From an uncultured Gammaproteobacteria bacterium (GTDB lineage: Bacteria > Patescibacteriota > Patescibacteriia > Veblenbacterales > UBA10138), in the NCBI GenBank assembly GCA_964453605.1, contig CAYVOI010000001.1:676095-740094 (forward strand): 64,000 nucleotides of DNA, given 5' to 3'. Shown one piece after another: positions 557 to 26,402 of this stretch. Below the pieces are notes generated by a model. That model was not told where the DNA came from, ran no database searches, and worked only from the letters and a program-made list of their open reading frames with translations. Position 1 is the first letter of the stretch; each line of letters opens with the position of its first letter. The translations under genes were made by a program, and so were the position numbers.

Positions 557-1786
557 TCACGCCAGGGCGACAAGTTTTTTAACGTAACCCTCTAGAGTTC
601 GGTCAGCAAAAGCGCGGCTCCCCTTGAGCCCAGCGCGCAACAAGTCGCCCGGATTATCTAAACACCAGGTAAGCTTCTGTACAAACTCCTGCCTATCGGC
701 TGGGGTATAGAGCCAGCCAGTTTCACCCTCACGAATAAGCTCAGGTATACCACCAACGCGTACCGCCAGTACCGGCGTACCAGCCAGGAACGACTTAGCA
801 ATGGAACCTGGTGAGTTCTCGTAGCAGAGAGATGGCACAATAGTGAGGTGGGCCGAGGTGTAGTGTTCATCTATTTCCGCTTGTGTTACTAACCAGTGGA
901 GTTTGAAGCGACTATCATTTCCCATAAGAGCTCGCGTCTGCTGCAAACGCGCCTTGTCACCGCGAGCCACTAGGTGGAGCTCAAAATCTTGCCGCGGCAA
1001 CGTTTTCAGTGCCTCTATCAGCCAGAACACGCCCTTGTGCACCTCGAGCTGGCCATCGTAGAGAAGCTTCAGCGGCTTGTTCGTAGTTTTTGTATGTGGT
1101 TGGTTCTGAGCCAGCGGCACCGGGTTCGGCAGTACAGCAGTCTTGCTATGAGCGAAAAACCCACGAGCGCTGTGCCGCTCCAGCAGCCACTCAGACGGTG
1201 ACACGGCTACCGCCACCGGGGCAAACAAACGCTTGGTACACTGCTGGTACAACCTCATGGGTAGGCTGAGCTTATCTTTACCCCAGAGGAACAGGCCCGA
1301 GGGGTGCAGGAGCTGCACATCGTGCAGGATATGAATCTGCGTAAGGCCTAATCGCTTTACCGCGCGTGGGATGAGGAACGAAAGCCCCATCAAGTTCGAG
1401 CTTATAACCAGGTCGGGTTGAGTACTTCGTAGTAGACGTTCAACCACTCGAGCCGCTGGCACGTTCCACAAGTTCCAAAGCTGCCACAGGAACCGCACGG
1501 GGTACGGCACGCGGGCAGCGTACAGGTAGTGGTAGAGGTTCAAGGGGAAAAACCGGTACACCTGTACCCCACCCTCCTCGTGGAGCTTGGGCCTAAAGCT
1601 CTTAACACTCTTCCATGGCACCGTGGTTATAACCGTAACCTGGTGCCCCTGCCGCCTGAGCTCAAGCACCATCTCGTGGGCCAGGTACTCAGCCCCGCCA
1701 CGAACAAACGGCGGGTACAAGTTGGTGAGTAGAGCAATCTTCATCCCGGTAGTAGAACTTTGAAACGTCTCTGCATAAACAGACAT
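557..1786 (-). CDS. glycosyltransferase family 4 (GT1 domain). The likely true start is the internal MKIALLTNLYPP.
   Basis: N-terminal 'KIALLTNLYPPFVRGGAE' and a C-terminal GT1 'GxPELIxEGETGWL' E-x7-E-like motif. Confidence 0.75.
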   Translation of the reverse strand: MSVYAETFQSSTTGMKIALLTNLYPPFVRGGAEYLAHEMVLELRRQGHQVTVITTVPWKSVKSFRPKLHEEGGVQVYRFFPLNLYHYLYAARVPYPVRFLWQLWNLWNVPAARVVERLLRSTQPDLVISSNLMGLSFLIPRAVKRLGLTQIHILHDVQLLHPSGLFLWGKDKLSLPMRLYQQCTKRLFAPVAVAVSPSEWLLERHSARGFFAHSKTAVLPNPVPLAQNQPHTKTTNKPLKLLYDGQLEVHKGVFWLIEALKTLPRQDFELHLVARGDKARLQQTRALMGNDSRFKLHWLVTQAEIDEHYTSAHLTIVPSLCYENSPGSIAKSFLAGTPVLAVRVGGIPELIREGETGWLYTPADRQEFVQKLTWCLDNPGDLLRAGLKGSRAFADRTLEGYVKKLVALA

Positions 1787-1903
1787 ACGTTAAGCCGACG
1801 CGTTAGCAATCTACGCCCTTGACTGATTTTACGATAGCGCCCCCGACACTGAGCGTCCAGTTTGTACTTGACGAACATAACCATTCAAAGTTTCACTACC
1901 GGG

Positions 1904-3028
1904 TCATAACGCTTGTCGGTACAGCTGCCGCAGCCGTTCGCCAATCGCTTCCCAGCGGTACTCTTGTTGAACCACCGCGTGGCCCCGGTCACCAAAAGCC
2001 CGTGCCTCTTGGGGCGAGCCTAACAGATGGTCGAGCGCAGCGGCCAGCGCCGTGGGGTCACCCGGTTGCACCAGCAAACCAGTCTGGTGCTCGCGGACCA
2101 CAGCCCTCACCCCGGGGAGCCTCGTAGCTACAACCGGAATGCCACAGGCCATGGCTTGGAGCAGCACTAGGCCAAAGGTTTCGGCTCCGCCTGAACTTGG
2201 TAGCACGAACACCGAAGCCAACCTAAAGTAGCTCGGCAGCTCGCCCTCAGGCACAAACCCCACAAACTGCACCTGGCGCCCCAAGCCCAAAGCCTTAGCC
2301 TGCATTTCATAGGTCGGCCGAGCATTACCTTTCCCAACTATCACCAGACGCCAGGTACGGTGCTTAAGGTGCGCTAGAGCTTGGAGCAGCACGCTTACAC
2401 CCTTAAAGGCGTGAGCTGCATCAAGCGAGCCAACAAAAAGTACTACGGGCATGTGCTCAGGAATGCCAAGAGAGTGTTCCAACGCTTGCGACGGTTCTCC
2501 TGGCTGGTACTGCTCGGCAACCCCGGGTGGCAGCACCTGCCACTTGTCTCGGTGCCCCAAGCGCGGCAGCGCCACGGTTTCTAGGTAGTCTTGCGTTTGC
2601 GTTATGAGGAGACTAGCTCGCTTAGCCAGGTAAGCCTCACTACCAGTACCTAAGTGCCGGAGGAACCAACCCTTTAACCCTCCGGCTTCAGCCACCATAT
2701 GGTACGTAACTACGAGCTTAACTCGCCGCGGTAAAAACCGTAGGAACTCTTGGGCGCCAAAGAAAGGGTAGTGCAGGTGTACGACATCAAACTTCCTCAG
2801 GCGCCAGATGAGCTGCGGCAGGAGCGCGGCATTGCCAAAGCTGCCCCAGGGTTTAAGTGCCACCACCCGAACGCCAGGTGCATTCGTGAACGAACAGCGA
2901 CCACCATAGCGTGGTGTAAACACTGTCACCTCGTGCTCAGGAGCCAACAGCCGAGCGGTGTGGTAGGCCGTATGGCCAATGCCCCCACCATAGGGCGGGT
3001 ACACACAAGTAAGTACAGCAACACGCAT
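1904..3028 (-). CDS. glycosyltransferase family 4 (GT1 domain)
   Basis: 'MRVAVLTCVYPPYGGGIGHTAY' N-terminus and a C-terminal 'SSGGAETFGLVLLQAMACGIPVVAT...GLLV' GT1 signature. Confidence 0.8.
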   Translation of the reverse strand: MRVAVLTCVYPPYGGGIGHTAYHTARLLAPEHEVTVFTPRYGGRCSFTNAPGVRVVALKPWGSFGNAALLPQLIWRLRKFDVVHLHYPFFGAQEFLRFLPRRVKLVVTYHMVAEAGGLKGWFLRHLGTGSEAYLAKRASLLITQTQDYLETVALPRLGHRDKWQVLPPGVAEQYQPGEPSQALEHSLGIPEHMPVVLFVGSLDAAHAFKGVSVLLQALAHLKHRTWRLVIVGKGNARPTYEMQAKALGLGRQVQFVGFVPEGELPSYFRLASVFVLPSSGGAETFGLVLLQAMACGIPVVATRLPGVRAVVREHQTGLLVQPGDPTALAAALDHLLGSPQEARAFGDRGHAVVQQEYRWEAIGERLRQLYRQAL

Positions 3029-13992: not shown

Positions 13993-16900
13993 CTACTGCT
14001 TGGTGATAGTACCAAGGGTTGGCTTACCGTCAACGTACAGTCCAGTGGATGTGTCGAGGAAGTCACCATCTTGGTTAGCATCGTAACCAAGAGCAGCCTC
14101 AGTCACTGAGTACTTGAGGTTACCCAGGGTAGACACTGACAGCGCAAAGCTATCACCACTGGCTACGCTCGTCGCAGTGCTCAGTCCAATGGTCAGGTAA
14201 CGATAGGCACCACCGTTAATGGTAATGCTGCTCGTTAGTGTACCGAAGGCTACCGAGTCACTGGAGCTCACCTTGAGTGAGTTCGCCGTGTAATCAGACG
14301 AGTTCTCGCTCGAAGCGTAAACAGTGTAGCGCGCAGCGGAGCCGGTGTGGGTACCACCATCCGTGAACGAGGCATCGGTCAGGGTAACCTGCTTCGAGCC
14401 GTTGTTCTGGATCTTGAACTGACCAATGTAGGTGTTGGTGGTTACGGTCTGAGTCACCGACGAGGTCGGAGCAAAGGCCGACACCACCACGCCGAACGGC
14501 ACAATGTTGGTGTGGGCAGGGCCGGTGTTGTTCAAGTTGCCACCAGCGTAGGTTGGGGCAGTAGCTGTCTGCACGCCCTTAGCCGTAATGTCGTTACCGG
14601 TCGTCATGTCGAGCTTCATGTAGAAGTCGTCACCGAGCTTGGACACACCTTCGTGGCCGATGTCTGCCTTAGCGTAGATCGTTACCGGCGTACCGGGGTC
14701 GATTGCCGCAGGGAGCAGGTTGTCGGTCGCGGTCCAGGTGTTGTTGCAAGCGTTGCTTGAGCAGGTAGCGAACTGGCTAGCCGTAGCGAATGGATTGGCA
14801 TCCACCGCCGCGCTGCCTACCTGACGGTAGAGCGCTAGGTTCAGAACGTCGTTCTGGTTCAAGCTGGTACCCGCTGCCCTGAGGGTCAGCGAGGTAATCT
14901 TCTGGCTCTCGTACTGAGCGGCCAGCTGGAAGGCGAAGTAGGTGCCACCACTGGTGGACACGTTTACCACCTGGGCAAGCGCCGGCGTAGCGCCGGTGCC
15001 CGTCACCAGCGAACCGGTGAGCGTACCACCTGAGGCTACGGTAATGGTCTGACCAGTACCTGACCCGAAGGTTGGGGTGCTGATCGAGTTACCAGTGTCG
15101 TTGCCAGTGGCAGTGACGTGGGCGGTGTTGCTGGCCACCTTGTAGGTGTGGCTCGTACCGGTGGAGGCAATAACATTACCAACCAGTACCAAAGTTACGT
15201 TAGACGACGTTGATACAATAATGGGGTTGGTGAAGTTAAAGCTCACCGTGTTGGCGTTGGTCGCCGTTGACGAGCTGGTCTGTAGCGGAGTCTTACTGGC
15301 GTCGGCCGCGTTGTACATCCAGAGGTTGTTCACACCGCTGTAGTCCGAGCCTGAGCCCAAGGTGTCCGTCACAATAATGGTAGACACGCGTACGTTTTCA
15401 CCCGAGCTCTGAGCATTGAGCTCAAGGCGGGCGAACTCGACGTTGTTGGTGCCTGCCACCACGGAGGTCGCGACTGGTTGAGCCAGCGTTGACACCTTAA
15501 TGGCAGCGGTCTTGACCGAGCGAGTGAGGCTCGACACCGTACCAACACCCGGGTCTACCAAGTCGTTCGTCACAATGCGCTTAACCTGCGTGACGTCAAA
15601 GGCGTTCACGAAGTAAGCATCGCTCGTAGTGGCGCTGGAGCTGACGGAGACCTCGATGGTCACCACGCTCTTAACGCCGGACTTGATAATAGGGTAGCTG
15701 GAGAGGGTGATGCTGTTCACCGTACCGTTAGCAGCAAAGGTAGAGGCAGCGGCACTGTACACCGTGGAGCCGTCAACCTTTACGTACACCGTACCGGTGA
15801 GGTTGGTGGAGCCAGTGTTCTGGTTCAAACCAAAGCTCACCTTGCGAACTTCCATGTCCTCACCGTTGGCCTGGATGTCGTACTTACCGAGCACGACGCT
15901 GTTAGCACCCGGTACCACGGCCTGGCTCGGGGAGTCAGAGCTGCGGGAGAGGGTCAGCGTACCAGAACCAATGGTCACCTTGTTGTAGGTGCTGGTGGAA
16001 TCACCGATCGGGAAGCTGGTGTCGTTCGAGCCAGCCGTCGGCAGGATGCCGGAGTTGGTCGAGACGCCGCGGATGTCTACATCGTAATCGTTGTAGACAG
16101 TCCACTGGGCAGTGCGGTTCGCACCGTCAATGATAATACCACGAACGGTAAAGTCCTTGGTCTGGCCCTTATCGATCGGGAAGGGGTTAGCCGACAAGTC
16201 GAACCAAACACCCTTGGACATAACCTGAGCGGTAGCGAGCACGGTACCATTCTGTACCAGCTGCATATCCTTCATATCGGTGTCAGCCGCTGTACCATTG
16301 TTGTAGAGCCTGAGGCCGTAGAGCTTCACCACCTCGTTGGAGGAGGTCTCTTGCAGCCTAAACTTGGCTTGCTCCTGCTCGCTGGCAGCATCAACGTTTA
16401 GGGTGATGCCCGAAGCGTTGAGGGGCTGTTCATCAACCGTCACAGCAGCCAGGGAGCTCGAGCCATCTACCACGCTCATGGTGTTACTCGTGAGCGGGAA
16501 GGTGCCGGACACGGTAGCGCCGTTGGTCATAACATCAGCCGCCGAAGCAATGGCGAAGCTGACCGTACCGGTGTAAGAACCGGAGGCGAGGTTCACCTTT
16601 ACCCACACGGCCGTGGTCTGGCCAGCCGATACCATAATGGGGTCGCTGGAGAGGTTCATGATAGCAACGCCATCAGCCCCCAAGGTCGTAACCACGTTGC
16701 CGTAGCGGCGACTATTGGCAAACACCGAGATACCAGACACCTTGCTGTTGGCAAGGAAGCCCATCTTGGTGAGCTTGAGCTGCTTAACGTTGACTGCGCC
16801 GTCGCTTCCGGCAGTGACGTTGAACTTGAGGATAGCGTTGTAGGCGCTACCAGTTGCAATCGTCATGCTGACGGGAGTGTCAGAGGCTAGCGCCACTGAC

Positions 16901-17655
16901 AGCCCGGTGCCAGCACCAGGGGTGATAACTGAAGCACCGCCCGAAACGTTAACCAGGGCCGACTCCTGACCGGTGATGGAAGCACCATCCGGGTAGGCGA
17001 TGTCGGTGGTCACGCCGAAGGTTGAGCTCCTGATCCAGTTAGCGGTCGCGGCTGCGGCCGAGGCGAATGGGCGCCGGGTGCCGGCGCTGATGTAGTACCA
17101 CTGGCTGGGGTTCGAGGCGTAGTTCACCACTGCCCCGGTGGGGTGCATATCAGAGCTGATAGCAGTACCCATCGAGTAGTTGACGAAGAAGGCATCGGCG
17201 ACGTCCACAATGTGCTTGTTCCACATTGGGCCCCAGAGCTTCATGGCCCGGGCTTCGCTGTCGATAGCGCGGAGCTTGCCGCCTGGTTCAACGGCGTAGA
17301 CCTTCGGGTCAGTAGTAATCTTCACGAGCCAGGTACCGGGCCTCATGGTGACGTTGCCACCAATCGGGTAGGACGAAAGCTCAGAGAAGGGAACGGTCTT
17401 CACCGTAGAGAAATCCGCGTACCAGGACATGTAGGTGTTCTGGTTCGGGAAAACAAAACGCTTTGCGCCGTCGAAGTAGTACACGGCGCGGCAGGGGTCG
17501 TTAACACCCGAGCCTACCGGACAGGCCAACTTGATGAGGTCACCGGCCATGGCAGCGGCGGACACTGGCGAAGCCAGCAAGCCACCAAGCCCCAGCGTGG
17601 AAACCGCAGTCAAAGTCGAGACTGCGACGGAGAAAGCTTTCTTGAAATTAGACAT
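13993..17655 (-). CDS. very large (1220 aa) secreted cell-surface protein, Thr/Ser-rich with Ig-like beta-domain repeats
   Basis: Signal peptide 'MSNFKKAFSVAVSTLTAVSTLGLGGLLASPVSAAAMA', then a long low-complexity T/S/V/G-rich sequence typical of adhesin or S-layer-like proteins. Confidence 0.6.
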   Translation of the reverse strand: MSNFKKAFSVAVSTLTAVSTLGLGGLLASPVSAAAMAGDLIKLACPVGSGVNDPCRAVYYFDGAKRFVFPNQNTYMSWYADFSTVKTVPFSELSSYPIGGNVTMRPGTWLVKITTDPKVYAVEPGGKLRAIDSEARAMKLWGPMWNKHIVDVADAFFVNYSMGTAISSDMHPTGAVVNYASNPSQWYYISAGTRRPFASAAAATANWIRSSTFGVTTDIAYPDGASITGQESALVNVSGGASVITPGAGTGLSVALASDTPVSMTIATGSAYNAILKFNVTAGSDGAVNVKQLKLTKMGFLANSKVSGISVFANSRRYGNVVTTLGADGVAIMNLSSDPIMVSAGQTTAVWVKVNLASGSYTGTVSFAIASAADVMTNGATVSGTFPLTSNTMSVVDGSSSLAAVTVDEQPLNASGITLNVDAASEQEQAKFRLQETSSNEVVKLYGLRLYNNGTAADTDMKDMQLVQNGTVLATAQVMSKGVWFDLSANPFPIDKGQTKDFTVRGIIIDGANRTAQWTVYNDYDVDIRGVSTNSGILPTAGSNDTSFPIGDSTSTYNKVTIGSGTLTLSRSSDSPSQAVVPGANSVVLGKYDIQANGEDMEVRKVSFGLNQNTGSTNLTGTVYVKVDGSTVYSAAASTFAANGTVNSITLSSYPIIKSGVKSVVTIEVSVSSSATTSDAYFVNAFDVTQVKRIVTNDLVDPGVGTVSSLTRSVKTAAIKVSTLAQPVATSVVAGTNNVEFARLELNAQSSGENVRVSTIIVTDTLGSGSDYSGVNNLWMYNAADASKTPLQTSSSTATNANTVSFNFTNPIIVSTSSNVTLVLVGNVIASTGTSHTYKVASNTAHVTATGNDTGNSISTPTFGSGTGQTITVASGGTLTGSLVTGTGATPALAQVVNVSTSGGTYFAFQLAAQYESQKITSLTLRAAGTSLNQNDVLNLALYRQVGSAAVDANPFATASQFATCSSNACNNTWTATDNLLPAAIDPGTPVTIYAKADIGHEGVSKLGDDFYMKLDMTTGNDITAKGVQTATAPTYAGGNLNNTGPAHTNIVPFGVVVSAFAPTSSVTQTVTTNTYIGQFKIQNNGSKQVTLTDASFTDGGTHTGSAARYTVYASSENSSDYTANSLKVSSSDSVAFGTLTSSITINGGAYRYLTIGLSTATSVASGDSFALSVSTLGNLKYSVTEAALGYDANQDGDFLDTSTGLYVDGKPTLGTITKQ

Positions 17656-18317: not shown

Positions 18318-19448
18318 TTACTGCGGTGTGGGCTGGTTTGTGTTCGGAGTAGTAGTATCGGGTATAGTGGTCGGTACATTGGCTCCTGCCCCACCACTCG
18401 TAGTGTCTGGCGTAACTGCTGGGGCAGTGTTCTGGTCAGTAGCGCCTTGCACCTGCCCAGGCTCAGTCGCCGGCGCTTCGGCTTTATCAACCGCCGCTTC
18501 ACTCTTTACAGTAATGTCTTCACTCTCCTGCACCTTCTGAAGTGCCAGGCTAAATTCTTTCTTCTGCACCAAGTCCCTGGCCTCGGTCAGCGTCTTCTTA
18601 GCCTCAAGGGTAGCCACCTGTACAGGGACAATAGTCTGCCTAGCTTCTAACACCACGCGTGGGCTGGGTTTGGATTCAGGAAAGGTTGCTAGTTTGCTGT
18701 CCACGCCGTCGAGCTTAGCTTCTACTTTAGTAATCTGGGATTCAAGCCTGGTCGCCACCGCCGCGGGCAGCACGCCGTTGGCGCCGCTCTGGTGCGCTGC
18801 TACCAAGAACGCTACTGCTTGTGAAGAGAGCTTATCAGTAAGTGCCACGGCAATACCGTAAGGAACTTGAGCTGCGGTCTCAGGGTGCACCCGAGCCAAC
18901 CCGTGGAAAAGTCGCTCTACCTCTTCGTCGTACTGGAGCGCCAGCGAACTCGTCGGCTGGGTAGCTTGGAGCGCGGCTTCAGCAAACCCCAAGTCAACGT
19001 TGTAGTCCTTAAGCAAGCTAGCTTGAGTCACTAGGCTGCTCGGCGTAACGCTACCCACTTCGTCCAATCGGCGAGACGCCAGGGTCAGGTGGTACAGCCC
19101 CTGCGATTCAGGCGTAGCTTGTAGCGCCAGTTCAACGCGCTCCACTGAACGCTTCATGGGGTACCAGAAACTGCCCGGGCCACTGGTCTGGAGCGCATTA
19201 GCGAGCGGTGCCCAAGCAAACACCACTGCCAGCACCGCCACCGTCACAGGTACCAAGGGGAGTGGTGCTAAGCTCAAACGTACGTTAGCCAACTGCAAGC
19301 GGAAACTTTCACCAAACGTAAACTCCCGCTGTGTTTGGGTAGCGGTTACGTTGAGTAACTGTTCACGAGCCTGCTCACGCCACAAAGCCGGCGCCCGGCG
19401 TAGCGTGTGCAGTTCCTGCAGCTGGTGTATGAGGTTTCGGTCTGACAT
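18318..19448 (-). CDS. membrane protein downstream of ECF sigma, a putative anti-sigma factor (DUF5667-like) with a Pro/Thr-rich C-terminus
   Basis: Single TM 'LAPLPLVPVTVAVLAVVFAWAPL' after an ~80-aa cytoplasmic N-domain. Its start is only 8 bp from the upstream sigma gene stop (19448 vs 19457). Confidence 0.5.
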   Translation of the reverse strand: MSDRNLIHQLQELHTLRRAPALWREQAREQLLNVTATQTQREFTFGESFRLQLANVRLSLAPLPLVPVTVAVLAVVFAWAPLANALQTSGPGSFWYPMKRSVERVELALQATPESQGLYHLTLASRRLDEVGSVTPSSLVTQASLLKDYNVDLGFAEAALQATQPTSSLALQYDEEVERLFHGLARVHPETAAQVPYGIAVALTDKLSSQAVAFLVAAHQSGANGVLPAAVATRLESQITKVEAKLDGVDSKLATFPESKPSPRVVLEARQTIVPVQVATLEAKKTLTEARDLVQKKEFSLALQKVQESEDITVKSEAAVDKAEAPATEPGQVQGATDQNTAPAVTPDTTSGGAGANVPTTIPDTTTPNTNQPTPQ

Positions 19449-19456
19449 GCGAAAGT

Positions 19457-20011
19457 TTACTCAGTGGTGCTTAAAACGTTCTTGAGCTCTTGGAGCGCTC
19501 GGTGGAGTATAACGCGCGTAGCGGCTCCGGTCTTACCAATAATAGTTGCTATCTCCTGGGGCCGTAGCCCTTCAACGTAAGCCAGGATCACTACTTCTTG
19601 CCACTCTGGCTTAAGCCTAGTGAGAGCTACTTCTATTTCCTGTAAGCTCACGCGGTGCTCAGGGCTCAAGGCCCTGCCCTGGCTAACATCAGTTACGTGT
19701 AAAGCCTCATCAAGTGGTAAGGTGTTCTGCTGGCTCCGGTAGTGGTCAGCGATCAAGTTCCTGGCCACCTGGTAGAGGTAAGCCCGGAGGTTCCGTATGC
19801 CCCCACCTTCTGGCTTAGTCAGGTACTGCCAGACCTTGAGAAAAAGGTCTGAGGTAAGGTCCTGGGCTACTTCTTGGGTCCTGACGCGGAACGATACAAA
19901 CCGGTACAGCTGGTCCACGTAGCTATCGTACAGAACAGCAAAAGCCTCCTGGTCGCCATGCCGAATTTTTAACAGTAGTACCTCTTCTTCAATCTTGCGT
20001 TTCAAGTACAT
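19457..20011 (-). CDS. RNA polymerase sigma factor, sigma-70/ECF family
   Basis: Region 2 'FAVLYDSYVDQLYRFVSFRVRTQEVAQDLTSDLFLKVW'. Region 4 HTH 'LRPQEIATIIGKTGAATRVILHRALQEL'. Confidence 0.85.
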   Translation of the reverse strand: MYLKRKIEEEVLLLKIRHGDQEAFAVLYDSYVDQLYRFVSFRVRTQEVAQDLTSDLFLKVWQYLTKPEGGGIRNLRAYLYQVARNLIADHYRSQQNTLPLDEALHVTDVSQGRALSPEHRVSLQEIEVALTRLKPEWQEVVILAYVEGLRPQEIATIIGKTGAATRVILHRALQELKNVLSTTE

Positions 20012-20251
20012 ATATGGAGACGTGGTATGTGGAAAATCGTTACACTACGTGAGTGCTACTTTAACTATTTTCCCCTACTTTGGCAAGTATAAAAATAATG
20101 AAATTAAGCCAAAATACTACCCTATAAACTAACCAAATCGGCAAAATGCCATTCTTAATATATTTATACAATGATTTATATAAAAACAGCGGAAATTTTA
20201 AGAATTCATGAGCTTAAATGCAATAAAAATATAATACATGTATACAATAAT

Positions 20252-20279
20252 TTGACAAAAGTATACATTATTCTATACT
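20252..20279 (+). promoter_or_regulatory. near-consensus sigma70-type promoter (TTGACA, 16-nt spacer, TATACT) inside the AT-rich island and upstream of the HTH gene
   Basis: TTGACA at 20252-20257 and TATACT at 20274-20279, ~65 bp upstream of the ATG at 20346. Confidence 0.45.
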
Positions 20280-20345
20280 TTATGTATCTAAATTGAATAA
20301 ATTTATCCAGCAGGGATTAACTACACTAAAACTTTCTAACCACCG

Positions 20346-20618
20346 ATGAACTCCCCTATCAGAATTTCTGTCAGTGAAGCTTCCAGACTCTTTGGCTTAT
20401 CCACAAAAACCATTCGCCAAGCTATTAAGCTGGGCACCATAACCTATGTGGTCGTAAGGGGTAGGTACAAGCTGAACTTTGAGAGTGTGCTCAGCTGGTC
20501 CCAAAGCTCCCCCCGCCGGCAGCACGCTATGGAACGGGGTGGCTTGGGGCAGTATGTGGATACGTGGAAAATCAGGAACCGTAAGTACTCCCCCCGCCCA
20601 CCACAAGAAAACACTTAA
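20346..20618 (+). CDS. small helix-turn-helix DNA-binding protein (HTH_17 / excisionase-MerR-like)
   Basis: 'ISVSEASRLFGLSTKTIRQAIKLGTI' is a classic HTH. 90 aa. Convergent with the DGR RT. Confidence 0.6.
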   Translation: MNSPIRISVSEASRLFGLSTKTIRQAIKLGTITYVVVRGRYKLNFESVLSWSQSSPRRQHAMERGGLGQYVDTWKIRNRKYSPRPPQENT

Positions 20619-20622
20619 CCTG

Positions 20623-21729
20623 CTATAGCAAAAACTGGCGCTTTAAGCTTCGGCTCAAGCGATAAGCACTAGCGTGAGACAGCACGCCGAGGTACGAACT
20701 TAGCAATTGCCCAAAGCTAGTTTTGGTAATGGCTCCTCCACGCCAGGCCACCAGGCGTTGGTGCAGCTTTCGTAGCATGCGTGCCTTGGTTTTTGTGCGT
20801 AGCACGCGGCAGTGCGGCAGCACAACGTAACCTAGAAAATCAATACCCTGGCCGTACTTTCGGAGGATAACCTTCTTTTGGTGGAGTTCAAGCTTAAGGC
20901 CTTCCCTCAAAAACTCAGCGAGCTTTGGTACTAAGCTTTCGAGGTACTCTTTGTTGTCTGCCAGTATCACAAAATCATCGCAGTACCGCACGTAGTGCCT
21001 CACCTTGAGCTTGTGTTTTACAAACTGGTCAAGCTCGTTCAAGTAAATGTTCGAGAATAGCTGGCTGGTCACATTTCCTAAGGGCAATCCCTTGCCTGGA
21101 CTGGTTTCAAAACTTCCCACCACTTGACGAATAAGCCAGGTAGTGCTAAGGTCATATGATTTATACGCGATAAGCTCAAGCAATATCTTATGGTCAACCG
21201 TATCAAAGAATTTCTTGACATCGCACTTCAGAGCATAGCTAGGTTTTTGCCTGTTACGGCTTACCTGCCACAGGAAACGTTCCAAGCGGGCTACCCCGCG
21301 GTGGGTGCCTTTATCAATACGGCAAGAGTAGGAGTCGAAAATAAACTTCCGTTCGTACAACGGGTACAGTACGCGAAACAGGGCTTGGTGCACTACCCTG
21401 TCTCGCACGCTGGCCTTGTGGATATGTCGTAGCTTAGGGTCGGTAATGTAAAACGAAGCGTAAGCGGTGTTGCGGTAGGTTTTGCTGGTAAGCTCCTGGT
21501 GTAATTTAAAAAGGTTGTCCTCAAGGCCGAATTCAAACACCTGCACATCAGGCTTGCTCCGCTTGCCACGCCGAAACTCGCGCCAGGCTAAAAGCAGGTT
21601 AGGCAAACTAACAACCCGCTCAAATAAACCACTATGCCCAACACCATTCCCCAAAGCCCACCCCTCGCCACCGACCATGTTGATGTTCCCTTGGTTCATA
21701 CGATTTACCAATTTTACAAGCTTCTGCAC
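20623..21729 (-). CDS. diversity-generating retroelement (DGR) reverse transcriptase. The start is probably an internal Met near 21678.
   Basis: RT motifs 1-7. 'LPLGNVTSQLFSNIYLNELDQFVK' carries the DGR-specific SQ in motif 4, where group II introns have SP. 'YVRYCDDFVIL' catalytic motif. A cognate TR and VR lie next to it. Confidence 0.9.
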   Translation of the reverse strand: MQKLVKLVNRMNQGNINMVGGEGWALGNGVGHSGLFERVVSLPNLLLAWREFRRGKRSKPDVQVFEFGLEDNLFKLHQELTSKTYRNTAYASFYITDPKLRHIHKASVRDRVVHQALFRVLYPLYERKFIFDSYSCRIDKGTHRGVARLERFLWQVSRNRQKPSYALKCDVKKFFDTVDHKILLELIAYKSYDLSTTWLIRQVVGSFETSPGKGLPLGNVTSQLFSNIYLNELDQFVKHKLKVRHYVRYCDDFVILADNKEYLESLVPKLAEFLREGLKLELHQKKVILRKYGQGIDFLGYVVLPHCRVLRTKTKARMLRKLHQRLVAWRGGAITKTSFGQLLSSYLGVLSHASAYRLSRSLKRQFLL

Positions 21730-22014
21730 GGGTACATCAAGCTCTTCCCCAAAACCGAGAAGTACTCACTGGGCGCGCGTATTGAACATTTTACCCTGGA
21801 TACACTCGAGCTCTGCTTAAAGGCAGCCTATGCGTCTAGGGCAAACCGTTCAGTGCTCCTGGAGGAGCTCGACACGAAGGTGCAGGTGCTGAAAACGCTC
21901 GTCCGGCTGGCGCACGAAATTAGGGCGCTCGATGATGCTAAGTACTTGGGCCTGCAAGAACGGCTACAGGAGATGGGCAAAATGGTTGGCGGGTGGTTAA
22001 GATACAGCAGGTAA
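21634..22014 (+). CDS. avd: Avd-like accessory variability determinant (four-helix-bundle, 23S rRNA IVS protein family). The start may be a non-ATG codon near 21688.
   Basis: 'YQFYKLLHGYIKLFPKTEKYSLGARIEHFTLDTLELCLKA' matches the four-helix-bundle 'FPKxEKYxL' signature. It is followed by a strong terminator. It lies on the opposite strand from the RT, TR and target. Confidence 0.65.
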   Translation: MPNTIPQSPPLATDHVDVPLVHTIYQFYKLLHGYIKLFPKTEKYSLGARIEHFTLDTLELCLKAAYASRANRSVLLEELDTKVQVLKTLVRLAHEIRALDDAKYLGLQERLQEMGKMVGGWLRYSR

Positions 22015-22019
22015 AATAA

Positions 22020-22049
22020 GCACCCCCCGAAATGCCGGGGGGTGCTTTT
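22020..22049 (+). terminator. intrinsic terminator: a 10-bp GC stem (gcaccccccg/cggggggtgc) plus a TTTT run
   Basis: Starts 6 nt after the avd TAA stop. The same hairpin lies immediately 3' of the TR on the minus strand. Confidence 0.75.
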
Positions 22050-22068
22050 AGCATTACCGCGAGAACTT

Positions 22069-22184
22069 CCAGGGGACGAAGCCCGTTGTTGTTCCAGTGA
22101 TTACCCGCGTCGTTGTAGTTGACGTTCGCCAAGCCACCGTTGTCGGAGTTACCGCCGATAAGACGGCTACCACGGCTCTCAAAA
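22069..22184 (-). repeat. DGR template repeat (TR). The sense strand is minus, and it is rich in AAC codons in the target frame.
   Basis: ~116-bp near-identical copy of the 3' end of the target gene. It differs from the VR almost only at TR adenines. Confidence 0.9.
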
Positions 22185-22458
22185 ATTGTTTGCTCCCGCC
22201 CATAGACACCAGGGCTCGATTCGTATGCGAAACTCGCCCTTGTATTTTATGCTGTGGCAGCCCTGAAAGGTTTCGGACATCCACACTAGGAGCAAACAAG
22301 CAGTGCTCTTGGTAATGCCGCGATACGCTCTCCGCACCCGTGAGTTTGGAGACCCTGATCGCAAGTATCCTAAGGATTTCGGCGACAGCGATCCGTAAAC
22401 CACTGTGCATTAGCCTACTCTCAACTCTACCTTAGCTCATTTTTGAAAAATAATAAAG

Positions 22459-22497
22459 GCTTGAGAAAATTGCTTCCCAAGCCTTTTTTTCCAAGTT
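22459..22497. terminator. bidirectional hairpin terminator (aggcttg...caagcct) with T-runs on both sides, ~45 nt downstream of the target-gene stop
   Basis: 7-bp stem. TTTTTT follows on the plus strand and TTATTATTTTT on the minus strand. Confidence 0.5.
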
Positions 22498-22520
22498 CCA
22501 AAAGGAACCATTGTTTTCAA

Positions 22521-22536
22521 TCCGCCAGTTGGCGGA
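22521..22536 (-). other. short GC hairpin (tccgcc-agtt-ggcgga) immediately 3' of the VR/stop. It matches the cruciform/hairpin position seen at DGR targets.
   Basis: 6-bp stem with a 4-nt loop, 5 nt after the TAA at 22541-22543. Confidence 0.5.
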
Positions 22537-22540
22537 CAAG

Positions 22541-23482
22541 TTACAGCACTGCCAGGGGACGAAGCCCGAAGCTGTCCCAGTGAAGACCCGCGTCGTTGTA
22601 GTCGACGCTCGCCACGCCACCGTCGCCGGAGCTACCGCCAATAAGACGGCCACCACGGCTCTCAAAATACTCCTCTCGCCATTCCCAGGTGTTGGTTTTG
22701 CCATCGTCCTTGCGGGGCAAATCCAGGCACAGCTGAGGAATGACGTTGGCCTCGATCTCCTTTTCGAGACGGACTTGTTCAGGCTTGAGCTTGAGAAGTT
22801 TGGCCACGGCCGGCTTAACGTGTTGTTCCCATTCATTGGGTGAAACGCTGAAGCGAGACGAACGCGGACCTTGGGTGTAATCAAGAATGGCACCAGCCGA
22901 ACGCAAACCTGCGATGATGGAGCCGAGGAATTTTCCGTCGTCCTCATACATCTGCCGTCCATTGTCGTATACAGGCTTGCACCTGGTATCAATCAGTACC
23001 GTAATGCCACCAAGCCCATAGGCCGGATTGGAAACCACGAGCTCACCAGAGGTATTGGCCAAGAAAAGTTTGCCCTTGTCGGACACCTCGTAGTACCACT
23101 TCTCGGGCTTCACCTTCCAACCCGGAAAGTTTGCGGCCTGTGCCATGAGCACCGCCGGCAAAAACGCCACGTCGAGGCCAAGCTTTTGCCACTCGGCTAT
23201 CTGCCGACGACCGTAGCGCTTGAGTGTTTGGGCGAAGGCCGTGAGGTCAAACTCGGCACCGAAGAACAGCCAATGGCGTTTGAACTCCCGCAGCAGCAGG
23301 GCCAGCATCCAGTTGGACACTACCACCGTGTTGTGGCCGATGATGGTATCACTCACGCGCTTGGCGAGATCAGGCACTGCGCGCATCTTTTTGAAATGTT
23401 CTCGCTCGACACCATGCTGTGCCAGCACTTCGAACGTCGACGTTATTTCGGAGAGTGGTATCTCCTTGACTAAGTTCCCCAT
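22541..23482 (-). CDS. DGR target (variable) protein. The C-terminal ~39 codons are the variable repeat, VR 22551..22667.
   Basis: C-terminus '...VDYNDAGLHWDSFGLRPLAVL'. The TR-encoded version is 'VNYNDAGNHWNNNGLRPLEVL'. Strong SD (AAGGAG) before the ATG at 23482. No obvious signal peptide. Confidence 0.85.
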   Translation of the reverse strand: MGNLVKEIPLSEITSTFEVLAQHGVEREHFKKMRAVPDLAKRVSDTIIGHNTVVVSNWMLALLLREFKRHWLFFGAEFDLTAFAQTLKRYGRRQIAEWQKLGLDVAFLPAVLMAQAANFPGWKVKPEKWYYEVSDKGKLFLANTSGELVVSNPAYGLGGITVLIDTRCKPVYDNGRQMYEDDGKFLGSIIAGLRSAGAILDYTQGPRSSRFSVSPNEWEQHVKPAVAKLLKLKPEQVRLEKEIEANVIPQLCLDLPRKDDGKTNTWEWREEYFESRGGRLIGGSSGDGGVASVDYNDAGLHWDSFGLRPLAVL

Positions 23483-23865
23483 AATGGGTCACTCCTTTCC
23501 TGTATTTGGGCTCTCCTGTAGAAGGCTCGCCCGGTTGAACATTATCCAGCGTACAAGCTGGGGTTGATTGAAGTTACGACTAGGGTAAGTCTATGGCTGT
23601 AACTTATATTTAGTTTACCCCTGCCAACCTGACCAAAACACCCTGGTTTCAGCCATATTGGCAGGGATAAGGCATTGTTAAAGGACGCTCTATCGTACCC
23701 CTATTTTATAGCTTTGTCAAGCGCTTAAAGCGCGCCCACTCTAAACAACTAGCCATAGCCACATAAAAACCGCCCTAAGCTAGTGGCGGCACATTAAGTG
23801 CACAAGCAAAAGCCTAGTGACTAGGCCTTGCGCACCAGTGGCAAGTCTTGTAACCCCTGGGCTAA

Positions 23866-23905
23866 CTATACACCAAAAACCAAAAACACCCCAAAGAGCG
23901 GGGTG
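23866..23905 (-). terminator. intrinsic terminator on the minus strand (caccccgctctttggggtg plus a U-rich tail)
   Basis: 6-bp GC stem followed by TTTTTGGTTTTTGG on the minus strand. Confidence 0.5.
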
Positions 23906-24368
23906 CCGTAGAAAAGAATAAGAAGTTGGTTTTTTGTTGGAGGGATTGTTGAGAAGGGAATGTGTTGTAGAGGTGTTGTTTGAGGAGTTTTATAATTGAG
24001 AGTTTTGGTTGTTTGTGTGGAGTGTTGGGGTGCAGTTGCCTGCGGTAGGGGTTTTAGTAAGTTTTGTGTAGACGTCCCAGGCTTCAAGCTTTCTTGAAGA
24101 CTAAGGCATCTACACAGCCTACTACCCTATTCCACACAAGTCTCTCGACTCCTCTGGCCTCTATTCCCTTGTTAATCCTTCCGAAACCAACTTCTTATAG
24201 TTAGAATACTCTCAGGCTAAAACTTTGTCAAACCCCTGTAAATACTGAGGACTGTGCTACGTCTAACCCCTGGGGCTTAGAGTTATCCACAGCGTATAAA
24301 AAGAGGTAGCCCCACAACTTGTGAGACTACCTCCATGTTACGACTCTATTGGTTTTATTATGGCTGTG

Positions 24369-26402
24369 TTACCTACCCTCTCGCATGAACCCGAGGAAGA
24401 ACTGCAGGCCGTTGAAGCACTCGAACAGGCACACCTGCAGCCACTTCAGTGGATTCCACAGGTGGCGGTACCACTGGCACCAGACCTGGCTGATGTAGGT
24501 TCGCGATGAAACGCGGGCGAAGGGGTTGTGCTTGTAGAACCACAGCGCGAGCGACGACGGCACCCGCACCTCGGGCACCTCAGCCTTGAAACGAGCGTAG
24601 AGCGCACGCAGCTCGGAAACCTTCACCAGGCGCCAATCGACCACCCCCTTACGGGCACGGGCGACCAGCTCGGTGAGGCGCTCTTCCGCCGCAGGAATAG
24701 GCCGGCTCCTCAGCCACACCTCTTGGAACTGCAGGTAGAGCTTCACGAGCTCCCGCAGGCGGTAGGCAGCGGCGCGCGCCCTCCCCCACCAGAACGGCAG
24801 CCAGGCTTCGCGAGGGAACCCCGGCCTCCGCTCGTCGCGGTAGCGCACGGTCCAGAAACCGCAGTTCATGGGATGCAACCCCTCGATACGTGCAGCGTAC
24901 AGGTACCAGGCGAAAAACCACAGCTGCGCCCAGTAGTGCTTGCGGTTACCGCGCCAGCCCTTGAGCACCTGAACCATGTGGTCGGTAGAGTAGAACCACC
25001 GCCAAATGTCACGGTGTGTCTGTGCAAGGTCTGCAGCCGACATACTTTGGGGCAGTACGGCCACGTGGTTTGAGTCGTAGGTGTTAAAATCAGGATGCAT
25101 CCAACGACCCTCCTTCCACCACGTTTGGTGATCTTCCGACCCTGGCAGCGGGGTAAGAATATAGAACGAAGCTGAGTTGAAGCCGATAGCCTGAAGCTGG
25201 CAAATGTCCTCACGAATGCTGGCACGCGTGTCAAATTCCAAGCCAATGATATATCCGGCGTGGCACGTCATGCCTAAGGCATTGCAGTGTTTGACCAGCG
25301 ACTCATACTCCTTCACTTGGTTCTGGTACTTACCCTGCGCCTTCAGGTTCTGCTGGTTCATGGTCTCCAGGCCGAAGAATACCTGGTTGCAGCCGGCGCG
25401 GGCTGCCAACTGGAAGAAATCACTGTTCTTCCCCTTCCTGGCCGCCAGGTCAGCCTGCATCATGAACGTAAAGGGAATGCCCTCGGCCTCGCGGAGAGCG
25501 GCCAGGCCAGCGAACAGTTCGCGCCAGCGCGGGTTGCGGGCCAGGTTGTCGTCGGTGAAAAAACAGTGGCGAACGCCGACGGCGTGGTAGTTGCGGCGGA
25601 CAAACTCTACCACCTGGTGCGGGTCGCGGCAGCGCATGGTGTTCCCCTGCACGTTTATGATGGTGCAGAACTTGCAGGCGAACACGCAGCCGCGGCCGGT
25701 ATCAAGGGTACTGAACGGTGAAGCGAACCCCTTGAGATCAGACTTGGTAAGCCTGGGGATGGGCAAATTGGTGAGGTCGGGCGTCTCTTTCAGGAAATCG
25801 TAGAGCGGCTGAGCTTGTCCACGTACGACATCGGCGATAATGTTCGGTAACCGGTCGCCTTCCACCTCTCCAGCCACGAGCGTAATACCGCGATCCATAG
25901 CTGCCTTGAGGTCGTCCGTTAGGCCGATCATCGCCAGCATACCGCTGACGTGAAACCCCCCAATGAGCACGGCAATGCCGTGGGGCAGGAACTGGGCCGC
26001 AATATCATTAGCCCGTGGGTACTGGTTGGTTTGCACGCCCACGAACATGACAATCGCTTTCACGCCACGGCGGCGCGACTGCCTGATGATATCCCGCACC
26101 GGCACACGCTGAATTGCCTCGTCGATGAGGCGCACGTTGAGCTGTAGGCCTTGAAAAAACGGGTACCGGGTGAGATTACGCGTGAGGCAACCCATTTGGG
26201 TAAGGGTGTTACTGCGGATGACCCCGATACGTGTACGAATGGGGTAGCCGTCATCGGTGTAGTTGGTGCAGCGCACCAGCGTAATATCGAGCGTGTCGAC
26301 GCCGTACCTGTGCGCGGTCGTATTTGTCTGCAGCACGTGGTTCATAACTCCTCCTTTCATCAGAGGTTTAACGGTTGATATTGTATTGTCAATTATTTGC
26401 AA
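24369..26402 (-). CDS. B12-binding domain-containing radical SAM protein (class B). The start is probably an internal Met.
   Basis: 'GRGCVFACKFCTI' CxxxCxxC radical-SAM cluster motif after an N-terminal Rossmann-like B12-binding region ('GVKAIVMFVGVQTNQY...LIGGFHVS'). Long C-terminal extension. Confidence 0.8.
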   Translation of the reverse strand: MQIIDNTISTVKPLMKGGVMNHVLQTNTTAHRYGVDTLDITLVRCTNYTDDGYPIRTRIGVIRSNTLTQMGCLTRNLTRYPFFQGLQLNVRLIDEAIQRVPVRDIIRQSRRRGVKAIVMFVGVQTNQYPRANDIAAQFLPHGIAVLIGGFHVSGMLAMIGLTDDLKAAMDRGITLVAGEVEGDRLPNIIADVVRGQAQPLYDFLKETPDLTNLPIPRLTKSDLKGFASPFSTLDTGRGCVFACKFCTIINVQGNTMRCRDPHQVVEFVRRNYHAVGVRHCFFTDDNLARNPRWRELFAGLAALREAEGIPFTFMMQADLAARKGKNSDFFQLAARAGCNQVFFGLETMNQQNLKAQGKYQNQVKEYESLVKHCNALGMTCHAGYIIGLEFDTRASIREDICQLQAIGFNSASFYILTPLPGSEDHQTWWKEGRWMHPDFNTYDSNHVAVLPQSMSAADLAQTHRDIWRWFYSTDHMVQVLKGWRGNRKHYWAQLWFFAWYLYAARIEGLHPMNCGFWTVRYRDERRPGFPREAWLPFWWGRARAAAYRLRELVKLYLQFQEVWLRSRPIPAAEERLTELVARARKGVVDWRLVKVSELRALYARFKAEVPEVRVPSSLALWFYKHNPFARVSSRTYISQVWCQWYRHLWNPLKWLQVCLFECFNGLQFFLGFMREGR

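Follow-up and report, generated by a model that had tools for sequence, protein, structure and literature searches.

The diversity-generating retroelement (DGR) of Bordetella phage BPP-1 (mtd-VR / avd / TR / Sp / brt) transfers a template repeat (TR) to a variable repeat (VR) with adenine-specific changes. In its RNA, a primer strand (Sp47-56) pairs with TR117-129 and adjoins an avd:Sp stop duplex; a stem-loop and adenosines come next. This RNA primer forms a better match with IMH, at the VR end, than with IMH*, at the TR end. Since the definition of IMH, it has been an open point how the donor (TR) and the recipient (VR) are marked. In bacteria of the candidate phyla radiation (CPR), architecture B3 predominates, at 90% of the DGRs in the CPR set (Wu et al. 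2018, PMC5758913). Of 278 DGRs, 207 have stem-loops immediately downstream of TR, and across many DGRs, CPR members included, stem-loops 3' of TR have been assigned to Avd binding (Handa et al.). Two RNA motifs also bear on such elements. The Rfam/Weinberg RT-10 motif, which covers the BPP-1 Sp region, is a structured DGR RNA proposed to prime reverse transcription. RT-16 (Rfam RF03019) is an orphan motif near reverse transcriptase (RT) genes (Weinberg et al. 2017), and we found no function assigned to it in the literature.

We analyzed a locus with two similar repeats in a 64,000-nt stretch of DNA, referred to below as the window. Its main components are, in the order in which the minus strand is read:

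22541-23482, minus strand: target (variable-protein) gene, 313 aa, helical in its N-terminal region and with a C-type-lectin fold at the C-terminus; VR forms its last 39 codons
22552-22667, minus strand: variable repeat (VR), aligned to TR without gaps
22185-22422, minus strand: structured noncoding leader of the TR RNA
22069-22184, minus strand: template repeat (TR), with 26 adenines and 8 AAC codons
21634-22014, plus strand: avd (accessory variability determinant), 126 aa (Pfam bAvd PF22296, E=1.9e-17)
20623-21729, minus strand: DGR reverse transcriptase, listed ORF of 368 aa (Pfam RVT_1, E=6.5e-22)

On the minus strand, TR and VR aligned over 116 nt without a gap and with 14 mismatches. Twelve of these fall on the 26 TR adenines, which lie between 22086 and 22168 (Fisher/hypergeometric P = 9.8e-8), so that 46% of TR adenines differ versus 2/90 non-adenines. 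No mismatch is at an adenine of the VR copy, showing that the bias is one-directional. The two non-adenine mismatches are T>G at 22132 (plus-strand a>c, index 63) and C>T at 22157 (plus-strand g>a, index 88). A longer direct repeat without gaps spans 123 nt (22062-22184 and 22545-22667, 87% identity); in it, 27 of 28 TR adenines occupy the first or second codon position. Each of the 12 adenine substitutions is nonsynonymous. The TR peptide ...VNYNDAGNHWNNNGLRPLEVL corresponds to ...VDYNDAGLHWDSFGLRPLAVL* in VR, where Asn codons have become Ser (three), Asp (three), Leu (one), and Phe (one), with one S>G and one D>G change in addition. The repeat contains nine AAY codons, and AAC makes up 8 of 38 TR codons, compared to 2.7% of 15,843 codons in the long ORFs of the window (binomial P = 7e-6). 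A search of the window for a second VR or target gave nothing above noise: at the non-adenine positions of TR, the best match elsewhere was 45/90.

A sequence-only reading of this DNA had proposed the TR/VR pair from a manual alignment. The exact per-base alignment confirmed its count of 14 mismatches with 12 at about 26 TR adenines, and the two exceptions are exactly those it had described. Both peptides had been quoted correctly, and the replacement of Asn by Asp, Leu, Ser, or Phe was reproduced. The comparison of AAC frequencies that it had suggested revealed the enrichment given above. Substitutions scattered randomly over A, C, G, and T were named there as evidence against the idea, and the alignment shows concentration at adenines instead. 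It had also placed the end of the homology in a GC-rich stretch and expected an IMH-like element there. Identity indeed stops after GGGCTTCGTCCCCTGG, a 16-nt GC-rich sequence which is the same in both copies (22069-22084 and 22552-22567), and is followed by GCAGTGCT in VR and by GAAGTTCT in TR. The expected element was borne out by this IMH/IMH* difference and by a hairpin after VR. Further support for the TR/VR reading came from the DGR-type RT, the bAvd protein, and the recurrence of an adenine-biased VR-TR layout in related loci.

The proteins are in line with this. The C-terminus of the target has a C-type-lectin fold with TvpA of Treponema denticola as the top match, and VR forms the C-terminal strands of this C-type-lectin/FGE-like fold. 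No Pfam domain was detected in the target. Its identity with TvpA is 15%, its N-terminal approximately 150 residues are unrelated to that protein, and the Treponema element uses HRDC and has a different architecture. The best solved relative of the RT is the Bordetella phage bRT (8ub7, E=6e-46), while group II intron and retron RTs were matched at 1e-19. The motifs PxGxxTSQLF and RYxDD align with bRT, and the catalytic motifs are conserved. The RT gene lies approximately 300 nt downstream of TR; its true start is probably the ATG at 21699 or 21678, head-to-head with avd and overlapping it. The avd gene is on the strand opposite to TR, RT, and the target gene, and the same inverted placement was found in the related loci L009, L010, L018, L026, L031, and L033. 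A search for a solved structure of Avd gave no sequence-level PDB match. All three ORFs are intact.

Taken as a whole, the two repeats are very probably the TR and VR of a chromosomal DGR with B3 architecture. The locus has the features by which DGRs are recognized: an adenine-biased repeat pair, a DGR-clade RT adjoining TR, a VR within a target gene, an Avd, which most DGRs have, an IMH at the VR end that differs from IMH* at the TR end, and an inverted repeat after VR. After target/VR come the structured leader, TR, the inverted avd, and RT. As a gene order, TR-(avd)-RT corresponds to the published B3 architecture, and thus the element belongs to a known kind. Compared with CPR-type B3 DGRs (Wu et al. 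2018, PMC5758913), gene order and strands are identical, the source genome is Patescibacteria-like (contig of 876 kb), the target likewise lacks a Pfam domain, and there is no defining difference. The VR-then-TR layout with adenine bias was also detected in 10 loci with target-gene homologues and in >40 loci found via the RT, and relatives of the element occur in Patescibacteria. The element is therefore a further example of a known DGR type, and as such one more case among thousands catalogued, in a lineage where DGRs are commonest.

The region between VR and TR contains the following elements, which, together with the repeat ends that they concern, are all on the minus strand:

22545-22552: IMH core GCAGTGCT, the first bases past TR/VR identity and a perfect complement of leader positions 22300-22307
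22322-22415: helices P1-P3 of the conserved leader fold
22300-22319: proposed primer strand GGCAUUACCAAGAGCACUGC, pairing with the TR 3' flank (15/20) and the VR IMH core (8/8)
22297-22304: conserved leader motif ACUGCUUG
22288-22298: 5' strand of P4, UGUUUGCUCCU, pairing with 22187-22197
22252-22287: leader helix P5
22241-22251: A-rich single strand CAUAAAAUACA
22211-22240: leader helix P6
22198-22210: leader GGUG..GGGC
22187-22197: 3' strand of P4, GGGAGCAAACA, ending 3 nt ahead of TR
22050-22069: IMH*, the TR 3' flank GAAGUUCUCGCGGUAAUGCU, in a duplex with the primer strand that is mismatched at positions 1 and 5

Approximately 55 RT-linked loci have the conserved leader, and in all of them it is on the TR strand. 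Its approximately 235-nt fold contains 56 pairs, of which 49 show compensatory changes, and P4 alone comprises 11 pairs, 9 with compensatory changes and 97% of cells paired; these covariation counts, like those given below for the leader and VR, overstate the number of events because the related loci are not phylogenetically independent. In the whole leader, 91.7% of cells are paired, versus 40-49% in slid controls, and 0/500 shuffles reached the level of the leader. Thermodynamic folding of the window RNA alone recovered P4 and the duplex between primer strand and TR flank (z = -3.9), the latter in both the MFE and the centroid fold. Searching with nhmmer revealed one leader copy in the window, on the TR strand, and tied it to the relatives L026 and L009 (E=1.5e-42). 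A weak -10-like box (TAAGGT) precedes the leader in the window. We also considered a protein gene in the VR-TR spacer, where a 118-aa ORF (22054-22410) starts from a conserved ATG. In relatives, the ORF from this ATG is short (0-46 aa) and varies in frame, indicating that the spacer is not coding.

The leader proved to be complementary to the end of VR. At the diagnostic position, leader-VR complementarity was found in 40 of 47 related loci, and all four bases covary. At positions 1-5 past the repeat, VR is the reverse complement of the leader in 85-89% of loci versus 31-36% for permuted leaders; the register of leader, VR, and TR was chosen to maximize matches to either TR or VR over 8 positions, so the absolute match rates are inflated, while the VR-versus-TR contrast and the permuted control are unaffected. 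The mean perfect run with the leader is 5.9 nt for VR and 1.9 nt for TR, and in 39 of 47 loci the run is longer for VR. Pairing of the TR flank occurs farther down the primer strand, at positions 6-12. We rejected the simpler idea that the leader motif is more complementary to VR than to TR overall, as the totals over 18 nt are similar (VR 9.2, TR 10.1). The contrast is positional: VR is perfect at positions 0-7, whereas TR matches at positions 2-12 and is mismatched at 1 and 5. The A>C difference between 22068 and 22551 is the conserved IMH*/IMH difference and not a product of mutagenesis; the leader base that pairs with VR C22551 is G22301, the N of ACUNC. By analogy, pairing of the leader strand with the VR end fits the BPP-1 model, in which a cDNA-linked RNA primer would recognize the end of VR.

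We compared the leader with known RNA families. No Rfam match was obtained in 19500-24500 at E<=1; in 22000-22480 at E<=10, there were only chance matches to the terminator hairpin, and RT-10 was matched in neither scan. In the relatives L026 and L009, by contrast, the whole 158-nt RT-16 model aligns to the 3' half of the leader, with scores of 33.6 and 32.1 bits, respectively, both short of the gathering score of 50. The model and these leaders have in common CUAC.CG, the long-range helix, AUAAAAUaCAg, the inner hairpin, and GGUg; the RT-16 model lacks the 5' domain P1-P3. The window's own leader gave no RT-16 match at E<=10 and hence does not reach the 50 bits of Rfam membership. The leader is probably a distant homologue of RT-16 without being a member by the Rfam criterion. 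Neither this leader RNA nor its relation to IMH is described in the papers on B3 DGRs that were consulted (Wu et al. 2018, PMC5758913).

Three hairpins surround these elements, all given for the minus strand:

22520-22537: GC-rich hairpin with a 6-7 bp stem and the loop AACT, 3 nt past the stop codon; the DGR target-site inverted repeat
22455-22486: hairpin resembling an intrinsic terminator, with 14 pairs and then a T-run, at the end of the target-gene transcript
22018-22047: 13-bp hairpin just past TR, 3 nt after the avd stop codon on the other strand

The 40 nt downstream of VR fold at -13.6 kcal/mol, and about half of the relatives have such a hairpin. A CTTG array also lies downstream of VR. 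A strong hairpin after TR was found in 45 of 47 related loci, with differing sequences. In the window, this hairpin may terminate transcription in both directions, bind Avd as a stem-loop, or do both.

The likeness to BPP-1 extends from the adenine-specific transfer and the Avd protein to an RT that is 30-40% similar over its whole length and has the same motifs, a C-type-lectin-fold target with a C-terminal VR, the GC-rich repeat end, the IMH/IMH* difference, and the hairpin after VR. It includes the RNA logic, in which a primer strand is followed by a stop duplex, a stem-loop, and adenosines, and the primer complements IMH better than IMH*; the long-range helix P4 is analogous to the "cPRT stop" duplex of BPP-1. 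In contrast to BPP-1, avd is on the opposite strand, after TR, the host is a small-genome bacterium and not a phage, and the target has no phage-tail context. Furthermore, the primer-bearing structured RNA is located 5' of TR here and 3' of TR in BPP-1, corresponding to a circular permutation of the DGR RNA. Thus, priming and stop elements 3' of TR, which characterize a BPP-1-type RNA, are absent from that side, both being 5' of TR.

The following mechanism is modeled on BPP-1, from which the priming nucleotide and the chemistry are extrapolated. An RNA of approximately 400 nt (about 22422 to 22015, minus strand) would be transcribed from its own promoter and terminate at the hairpin past TR. 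P4 would close the leader directly 5' of TR, and the adjacent primer strand (22300-22319) would pair with IMH*, so that TR would be looped out between two stacked duplexes. RT-Avd could then start cDNA from the primer strand near C22300, with a first template base at approximately 22070, copy TR with misincorporation opposite adenines, and halt at P4. The RNA-linked cDNA would anneal to VR. Since the primer RNA is perfect to the VR IMH (22545-22552) and mismatched to the TR IMH*, transfer would be one-way. In the target protein, the new VR would recode approximately 10 Asn-rich positions at the surface of the lectin fold. Whether this holds for the whole B3 class we judge to be evenly balanced; the proposal is that an approximately 235-nt 5' leader primes and stops the RT, that its 3' half is RT-16, and that the VR IMH is set or selected to match the primer strand, the TR mismatch being kept.

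Priming may alternatively occur elsewhere in an active element, from a hairpin or sequence 3' of TR or from a nicked target, and the leader would then serve Avd/RT recruitment, stability, or regulation. The frequent hairpin after TR (45/47 loci) and the link made by Handa et al. between stem-loops 3' of TR and Avd binding in many DGRs, including those of CPR, are compatible with this. Past the hairpin, however, the TR 3' sequence is antisense avd coding sequence, and it is the leader strand by P4 that pairs and covaries with both the TR flank and the VR IMH. Moreover, the succession of primer strand, stop duplex, stem-loop, and A-rich strand copies that of BPP-1 Sp47-81. We consider priming outside the leader unlikely.

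That the element once homed but has since lost its activity, leaving the TR/VR differences as a frozen record, appears quite unlikely. The two non-adenine mismatches would fit such decay, as would the exact target protein, which is known only as a single-member cluster. Yet change has remained confined almost entirely to adenines, the three ORFs and the RT catalytic motifs are preserved, and the leader, P4, the primer strand, and the IMH complementarity are all intact in the window. Two direct copies 483 nt apart could also have arisen by plain tandem duplication of the 3' end of the gene, and then diverged by gene conversion or point mutations, without any retroelement. The base-specific asymmetry already refutes this: the adenine bias (P=1e-7) is one-way. 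RT and Avd are adjacent, and dozens of loci with unrelated TR sequences have the same layout. The probability left for simple duplication is negligible.

If leader-based priming in B3 DGRs is true, the B3 scaffold is the BPP-1 TR-Sp RNA in circularly permuted form, and the RNA scaffold of CPR-type DGRs is on the opposite side of the template from that in the one studied system. The four-base covariation would be phylogenetic support for DGR directionality via RNA primer:IMH pairing: over 47 loci, it suggests that the VR end is read by an RNA primer strand, which bears on the marking of donor and recipient. The pairing would amount to a simple rule by which DGR target sites might be found or engineered, and could aid the prediction of remote targets and the retargeting of DGRs. 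The comparison of relatives would also give a job to the orphan RT-16-like RNA motif.

We considered a prophage context for the locus and rejected it on the basis of the surrounding genes. The neighbors of the element are gyrB and genes for an ECF sigma factor, a DUF5667 protein, and a radical SAM protein.

The template repeat (TR) and variable repeat (VR) form a direct repeat without gaps on the minus strand (22062-22184 and 22545-22667), with 87% identity. The sequence-only reading had placed 12 of 14 mismatches on TR adenines and estimated about 26 adenines in the template. Re-alignment of TR 22069-22184 with VR 22552-22667 gave the same 12 of 14 and 26 adenines in 116 nt (hypergeometric P = 9.8e-8 for the mismatch bias). 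On the minus strand, the two exceptions it mentioned are T>G (22132) and C>T (22157). The asymmetry has a single direction: at mismatches, the VR base was G, T or C, never A. We counted eight A>G, three A>T and one A>C substitutions at TR adenines, all amino-acid-changing, and 27 of the 28 adenines in the 123-nt repeat lie at codon positions 1 or 2. In the VR, 46% of the TR adenines differ, close to the per-adenine rate of about 40% reported for cDNA of Bordetella phage BPP-1. Both peptides quoted in the earlier reading were right, and its Asn codon changes were found as claimed (Asn to Ser, Asp, Leu and Phe). The AAC codon to which it had pointed makes up 8 of 38 TR codons, compared with 2.7% of 15,843 codons in the long ORFs of the window (P = 7e-6). 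These results confirm the observation and support its interpretation as a TR/VR pair of a diversity-generating retroelement (DGR).

The repeats lie among the following features:
22541-23482, minus strand: target gene, a 313-aa ORF with the VR as its final 39 codons
22520-22537: GC-rich hairpin (6-7 bp stem, 4-nt loop), 3 nt past the target stop codon
22455-22486: terminator-like hairpin 3' of the target gene
22185-22422, minus strand: leader RNA
22018-22047: terminator-like hairpin 3' of the TR, 3 nt past the avd stop codon on the opposite strand
21634-22014, plus strand: avd
20623-21729, minus strand: reverse transcriptase (RT; RVT_1, E=6.5e-22)

The target ORF had no match in Pfam. In a fold comparison, the protein matched an FGE paralogue (8.8), the Legionella Lcl C-terminal domain (8.4), Mtd (7.4), TaqVP (5.4) and numerous animal C-type lectin domains. 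Therefore, the target is a typical DGR variable protein in fold, not in sequence. The majority of its homologues come from Patescibacteria MAGs. The nearest solved relative of the RT is the BPP-1 bRT (8ub7, E=6e-46), with which it aligns at the fingertip, LKxD, PxGxxTSQLF and RYxDD motifs; group II intron and retron RTs come next (~1e-19). The head-to-head overlap between the 5' ends of avd and the RT ORF (21634-21729) measures 45-96 nt, according to which RT start is used. A sigma-70-like promoter match for the RT (21740-21711) falls within avd, a similar near-overlap is present in the related loci L009 and L026, and expression of the two genes may be mutually interfering. The neighbouring genes are chromosomal: gyrB, a radical SAM gene and, after the DGR, a pair formed by an ECF sigma factor (19457-20011) and an anti-sigma-like DUF5667 gene (18318-19448). 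Downstream of this pair lies a 1220-aa ORF (13993-17655, minus strand) without a Pfam match. Nearly all long ORFs of the 64-kb window are on the minus strand, and its G+C content of 55% is rather high for a Patescibacteria-like genome.

The gene order exactly matches the B3 architecture of Wu et al. 2018 (PMC5758913), TR-(avd)-RT with a reverse-strand avd, which made up 90% of their CPR-set DGRs and was almost absent elsewhere. Target homologues were encoded at 35 genome loci. In 10 of these, a TR lay 413-534 nt past the start of the VR and showed adenine bias (e.g., 10/10, 19/20, 11/11 and 16/17 mismatches); 6 of the 35 carried inverted avd and RT in the order seen here. A metagenome scan with the RT alignment yielded 80 further loci. 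Metagenome loci, genome loci and the window together gave 55 loci in which the RT strand carries a TR/VR pair with adenine bias, the VR preceding the TR by 400-620 nt. Thus, the element belongs to a known, well-populated kind of DGR. The locus is an ordinary B3-type DGR of a small-genome bacterium and appears to be intact.

Two further arrangements were seen among the relatives. The TR of L073 (475-584) matched two VRs, 106-214 and 2686-2795, with 16/18 and 11/11 mismatches at A; therefore, this DGR diversifies two targets, one on either side of the RT cassette. L016, L017, L019, L020, L022 (Poribacteria) and about 20 other loci encode a target homologue, but RT, Avd and TR are absent within ~5 kb. 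These may be paralogues that are not diversified, or a remote DGR may target them. A separate, weak pair with adenine bias is present in L019 (10430-10524 and 7926-8020; 7/9 mismatches at A).

About 235 nt upstream of the TR is conserved across loci with unrelated TRs and targets. A protein gene was considered here and rejected: the ORF from the sole conserved ATG varies from 0 to 118 aa across loci. RNAalifold on 26 leader sequences gave 56 pairs in about six helices, 49 of them with compensatory double changes. Paired cells amounted to 91.7%, versus 40-49% when partners were slid by 1-3 columns, the covariation score was 0.66 versus 0.13-0.16 in controls, and 0 of 500 shuffles attained the observed values. 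The leader is a structured RNA. Its alignment profile had a single match in the window (22422-22177, minus strand, E=1.5e-42) and matched about 55 loci, each time on the TR and RT strand. The long-range helix P4 joins 22288-22298 with 22187-22197 (11 pairs, 9 compensatory) and ends 3 nt before the TR; it is followed by stem-loop P5 and a conserved A-rich strand, CAUAAAAUACA. The primer strand directly 5' of P4 (22300-22319, consensus ...ACUNC) is complementary to the TR 3' flank, with 15 of 20 positions pairing in the window. On the 3' side of the TR, a single hairpin is followed by antisense avd sequence. When the 411-nt window RNA was folded alone, P4 and the primer:flank duplex were present in both the MFE and the centroid structure (z = -3.9). 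Thus, the TR is looped out between adjacent duplexes in the predicted fold.

Rfam 15 had no match in the part of the window that was searched (19500-24500). In L026 and L009, RT-16 (RF03019) aligned end-to-end with the 3' half of the leader, immediately 5' of the TR in each (L026:6007-6129, 33.6 bits; L009:1869-2042, 32.1 bits; gathering score 50). RT-16 and these two leaders share CUAC.CG, the long-range helix, AUAAAAUaCAg, an inner hairpin and GGUg. Weinberg et al. 2017 listed RT-16 among RT-associated motifs and gave a DGR role to RT-10 (the BPP-1 Sp region) only; we found no later functional description of RT-16 in the literature. The position and end-to-end extent of these sub-threshold matches suggest that B3-type elements have RT-16 as their DGR RNA scaffold. 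In the window, the leader has diverged too far for RT-16 to score; it probably belongs to an extended RT-16 family. L026 also has a full-length tmRNA gene (1643-1964, minus strand; RF00023, 113 bits), ~4 kb from its DGR.

For 47 loci brought into register by the leader motif, we then compared the leader reverse complement with the VR and TR. At positions 0-5 past the repeat, 83-94% of loci have a VR base equal to the leader complement. The figures for the VR at the two variable positions are 85% and 89% (permuted leaders, 31% and 36%), and those for the TR just 36% and 57%. At positions 6-12, the TR agrees better than the VR (~50% versus ~28%). The unbroken match counted from position 0 has a mean length of 5.9 nt in the VR, compared with 1.9 nt in the TR; it is longer for the VR in 39 loci and for the TR in 3. 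At the diagnostic position, covariation between leader and VR involves all four bases (40/47 loci); in 20 of the 22 loci with C in the leader complement, the TR base is A. In the window, VR 22545-22552 is GCAGTGCT, as is the leader complement GCAGTGCT, and the TR is GAAGTTCT. Therefore, A>C at 22068/22551 is a conserved difference between the TR 3' flank (IMH*) and the first VR bases past the repeat (IMH), and its reading as mutagenesis was rejected. Pairing of the leader primer strand with the IMH obeys a consistent rule. Naorem et al. 2017 reported more extensive pairing of the BPP-1 RNA primer to IMH than to IMH*, and proposed that this sets directionality; judged from sequence comparison, the covariation in this distant DGR class supports their idea. 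The analysis adds the structured leader, its probable RT-16 family membership and the primer-strand/IMH pairing rule; we found no description of the three together in the literature, and tentatively regard them as new.

The cryo-EM structure of the BPP-1 RNP (Handa et al.) contains an avd:Sp "cPRT stop" duplex, followed by a stem-loop and an A-rich strand. P4 resembles this duplex, P5 and the A-rich strand follow as in BPP-1, and a TR looped out between two adjacent duplexes is common to both RNAs. Unlike in BPP-1, the scaffold lies 5' of the TR. In the scheme that we propose, cDNA would be primed from a putative priming nucleotide at about C22300, and the RNA primer would be joined to cDNA exactly at the end of TR/VR identity. 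The VR end may be copied from the RNA, or merely selected to match it.

Most related loci (L002, L048, L049, L055, L068, L078, L081 and L093, among others) have a short yCTTGr array downstream of the VR, before the target-gene terminator (22440-22545 in the window, minus strand). The motif averages 2.7 copies per 110 nt past the VR, versus 0.6 past the TR and 0.4 within the target gene. At least three copies occur in 26/47 loci, with a spacing peak of 7-8 nt. The array could bind a protein or be a site related to homing. The window copies are ACTTGT, ACTTGG and GCTTGG, and CUUG also follows the primer motif in the leader (ACUNCUUG).
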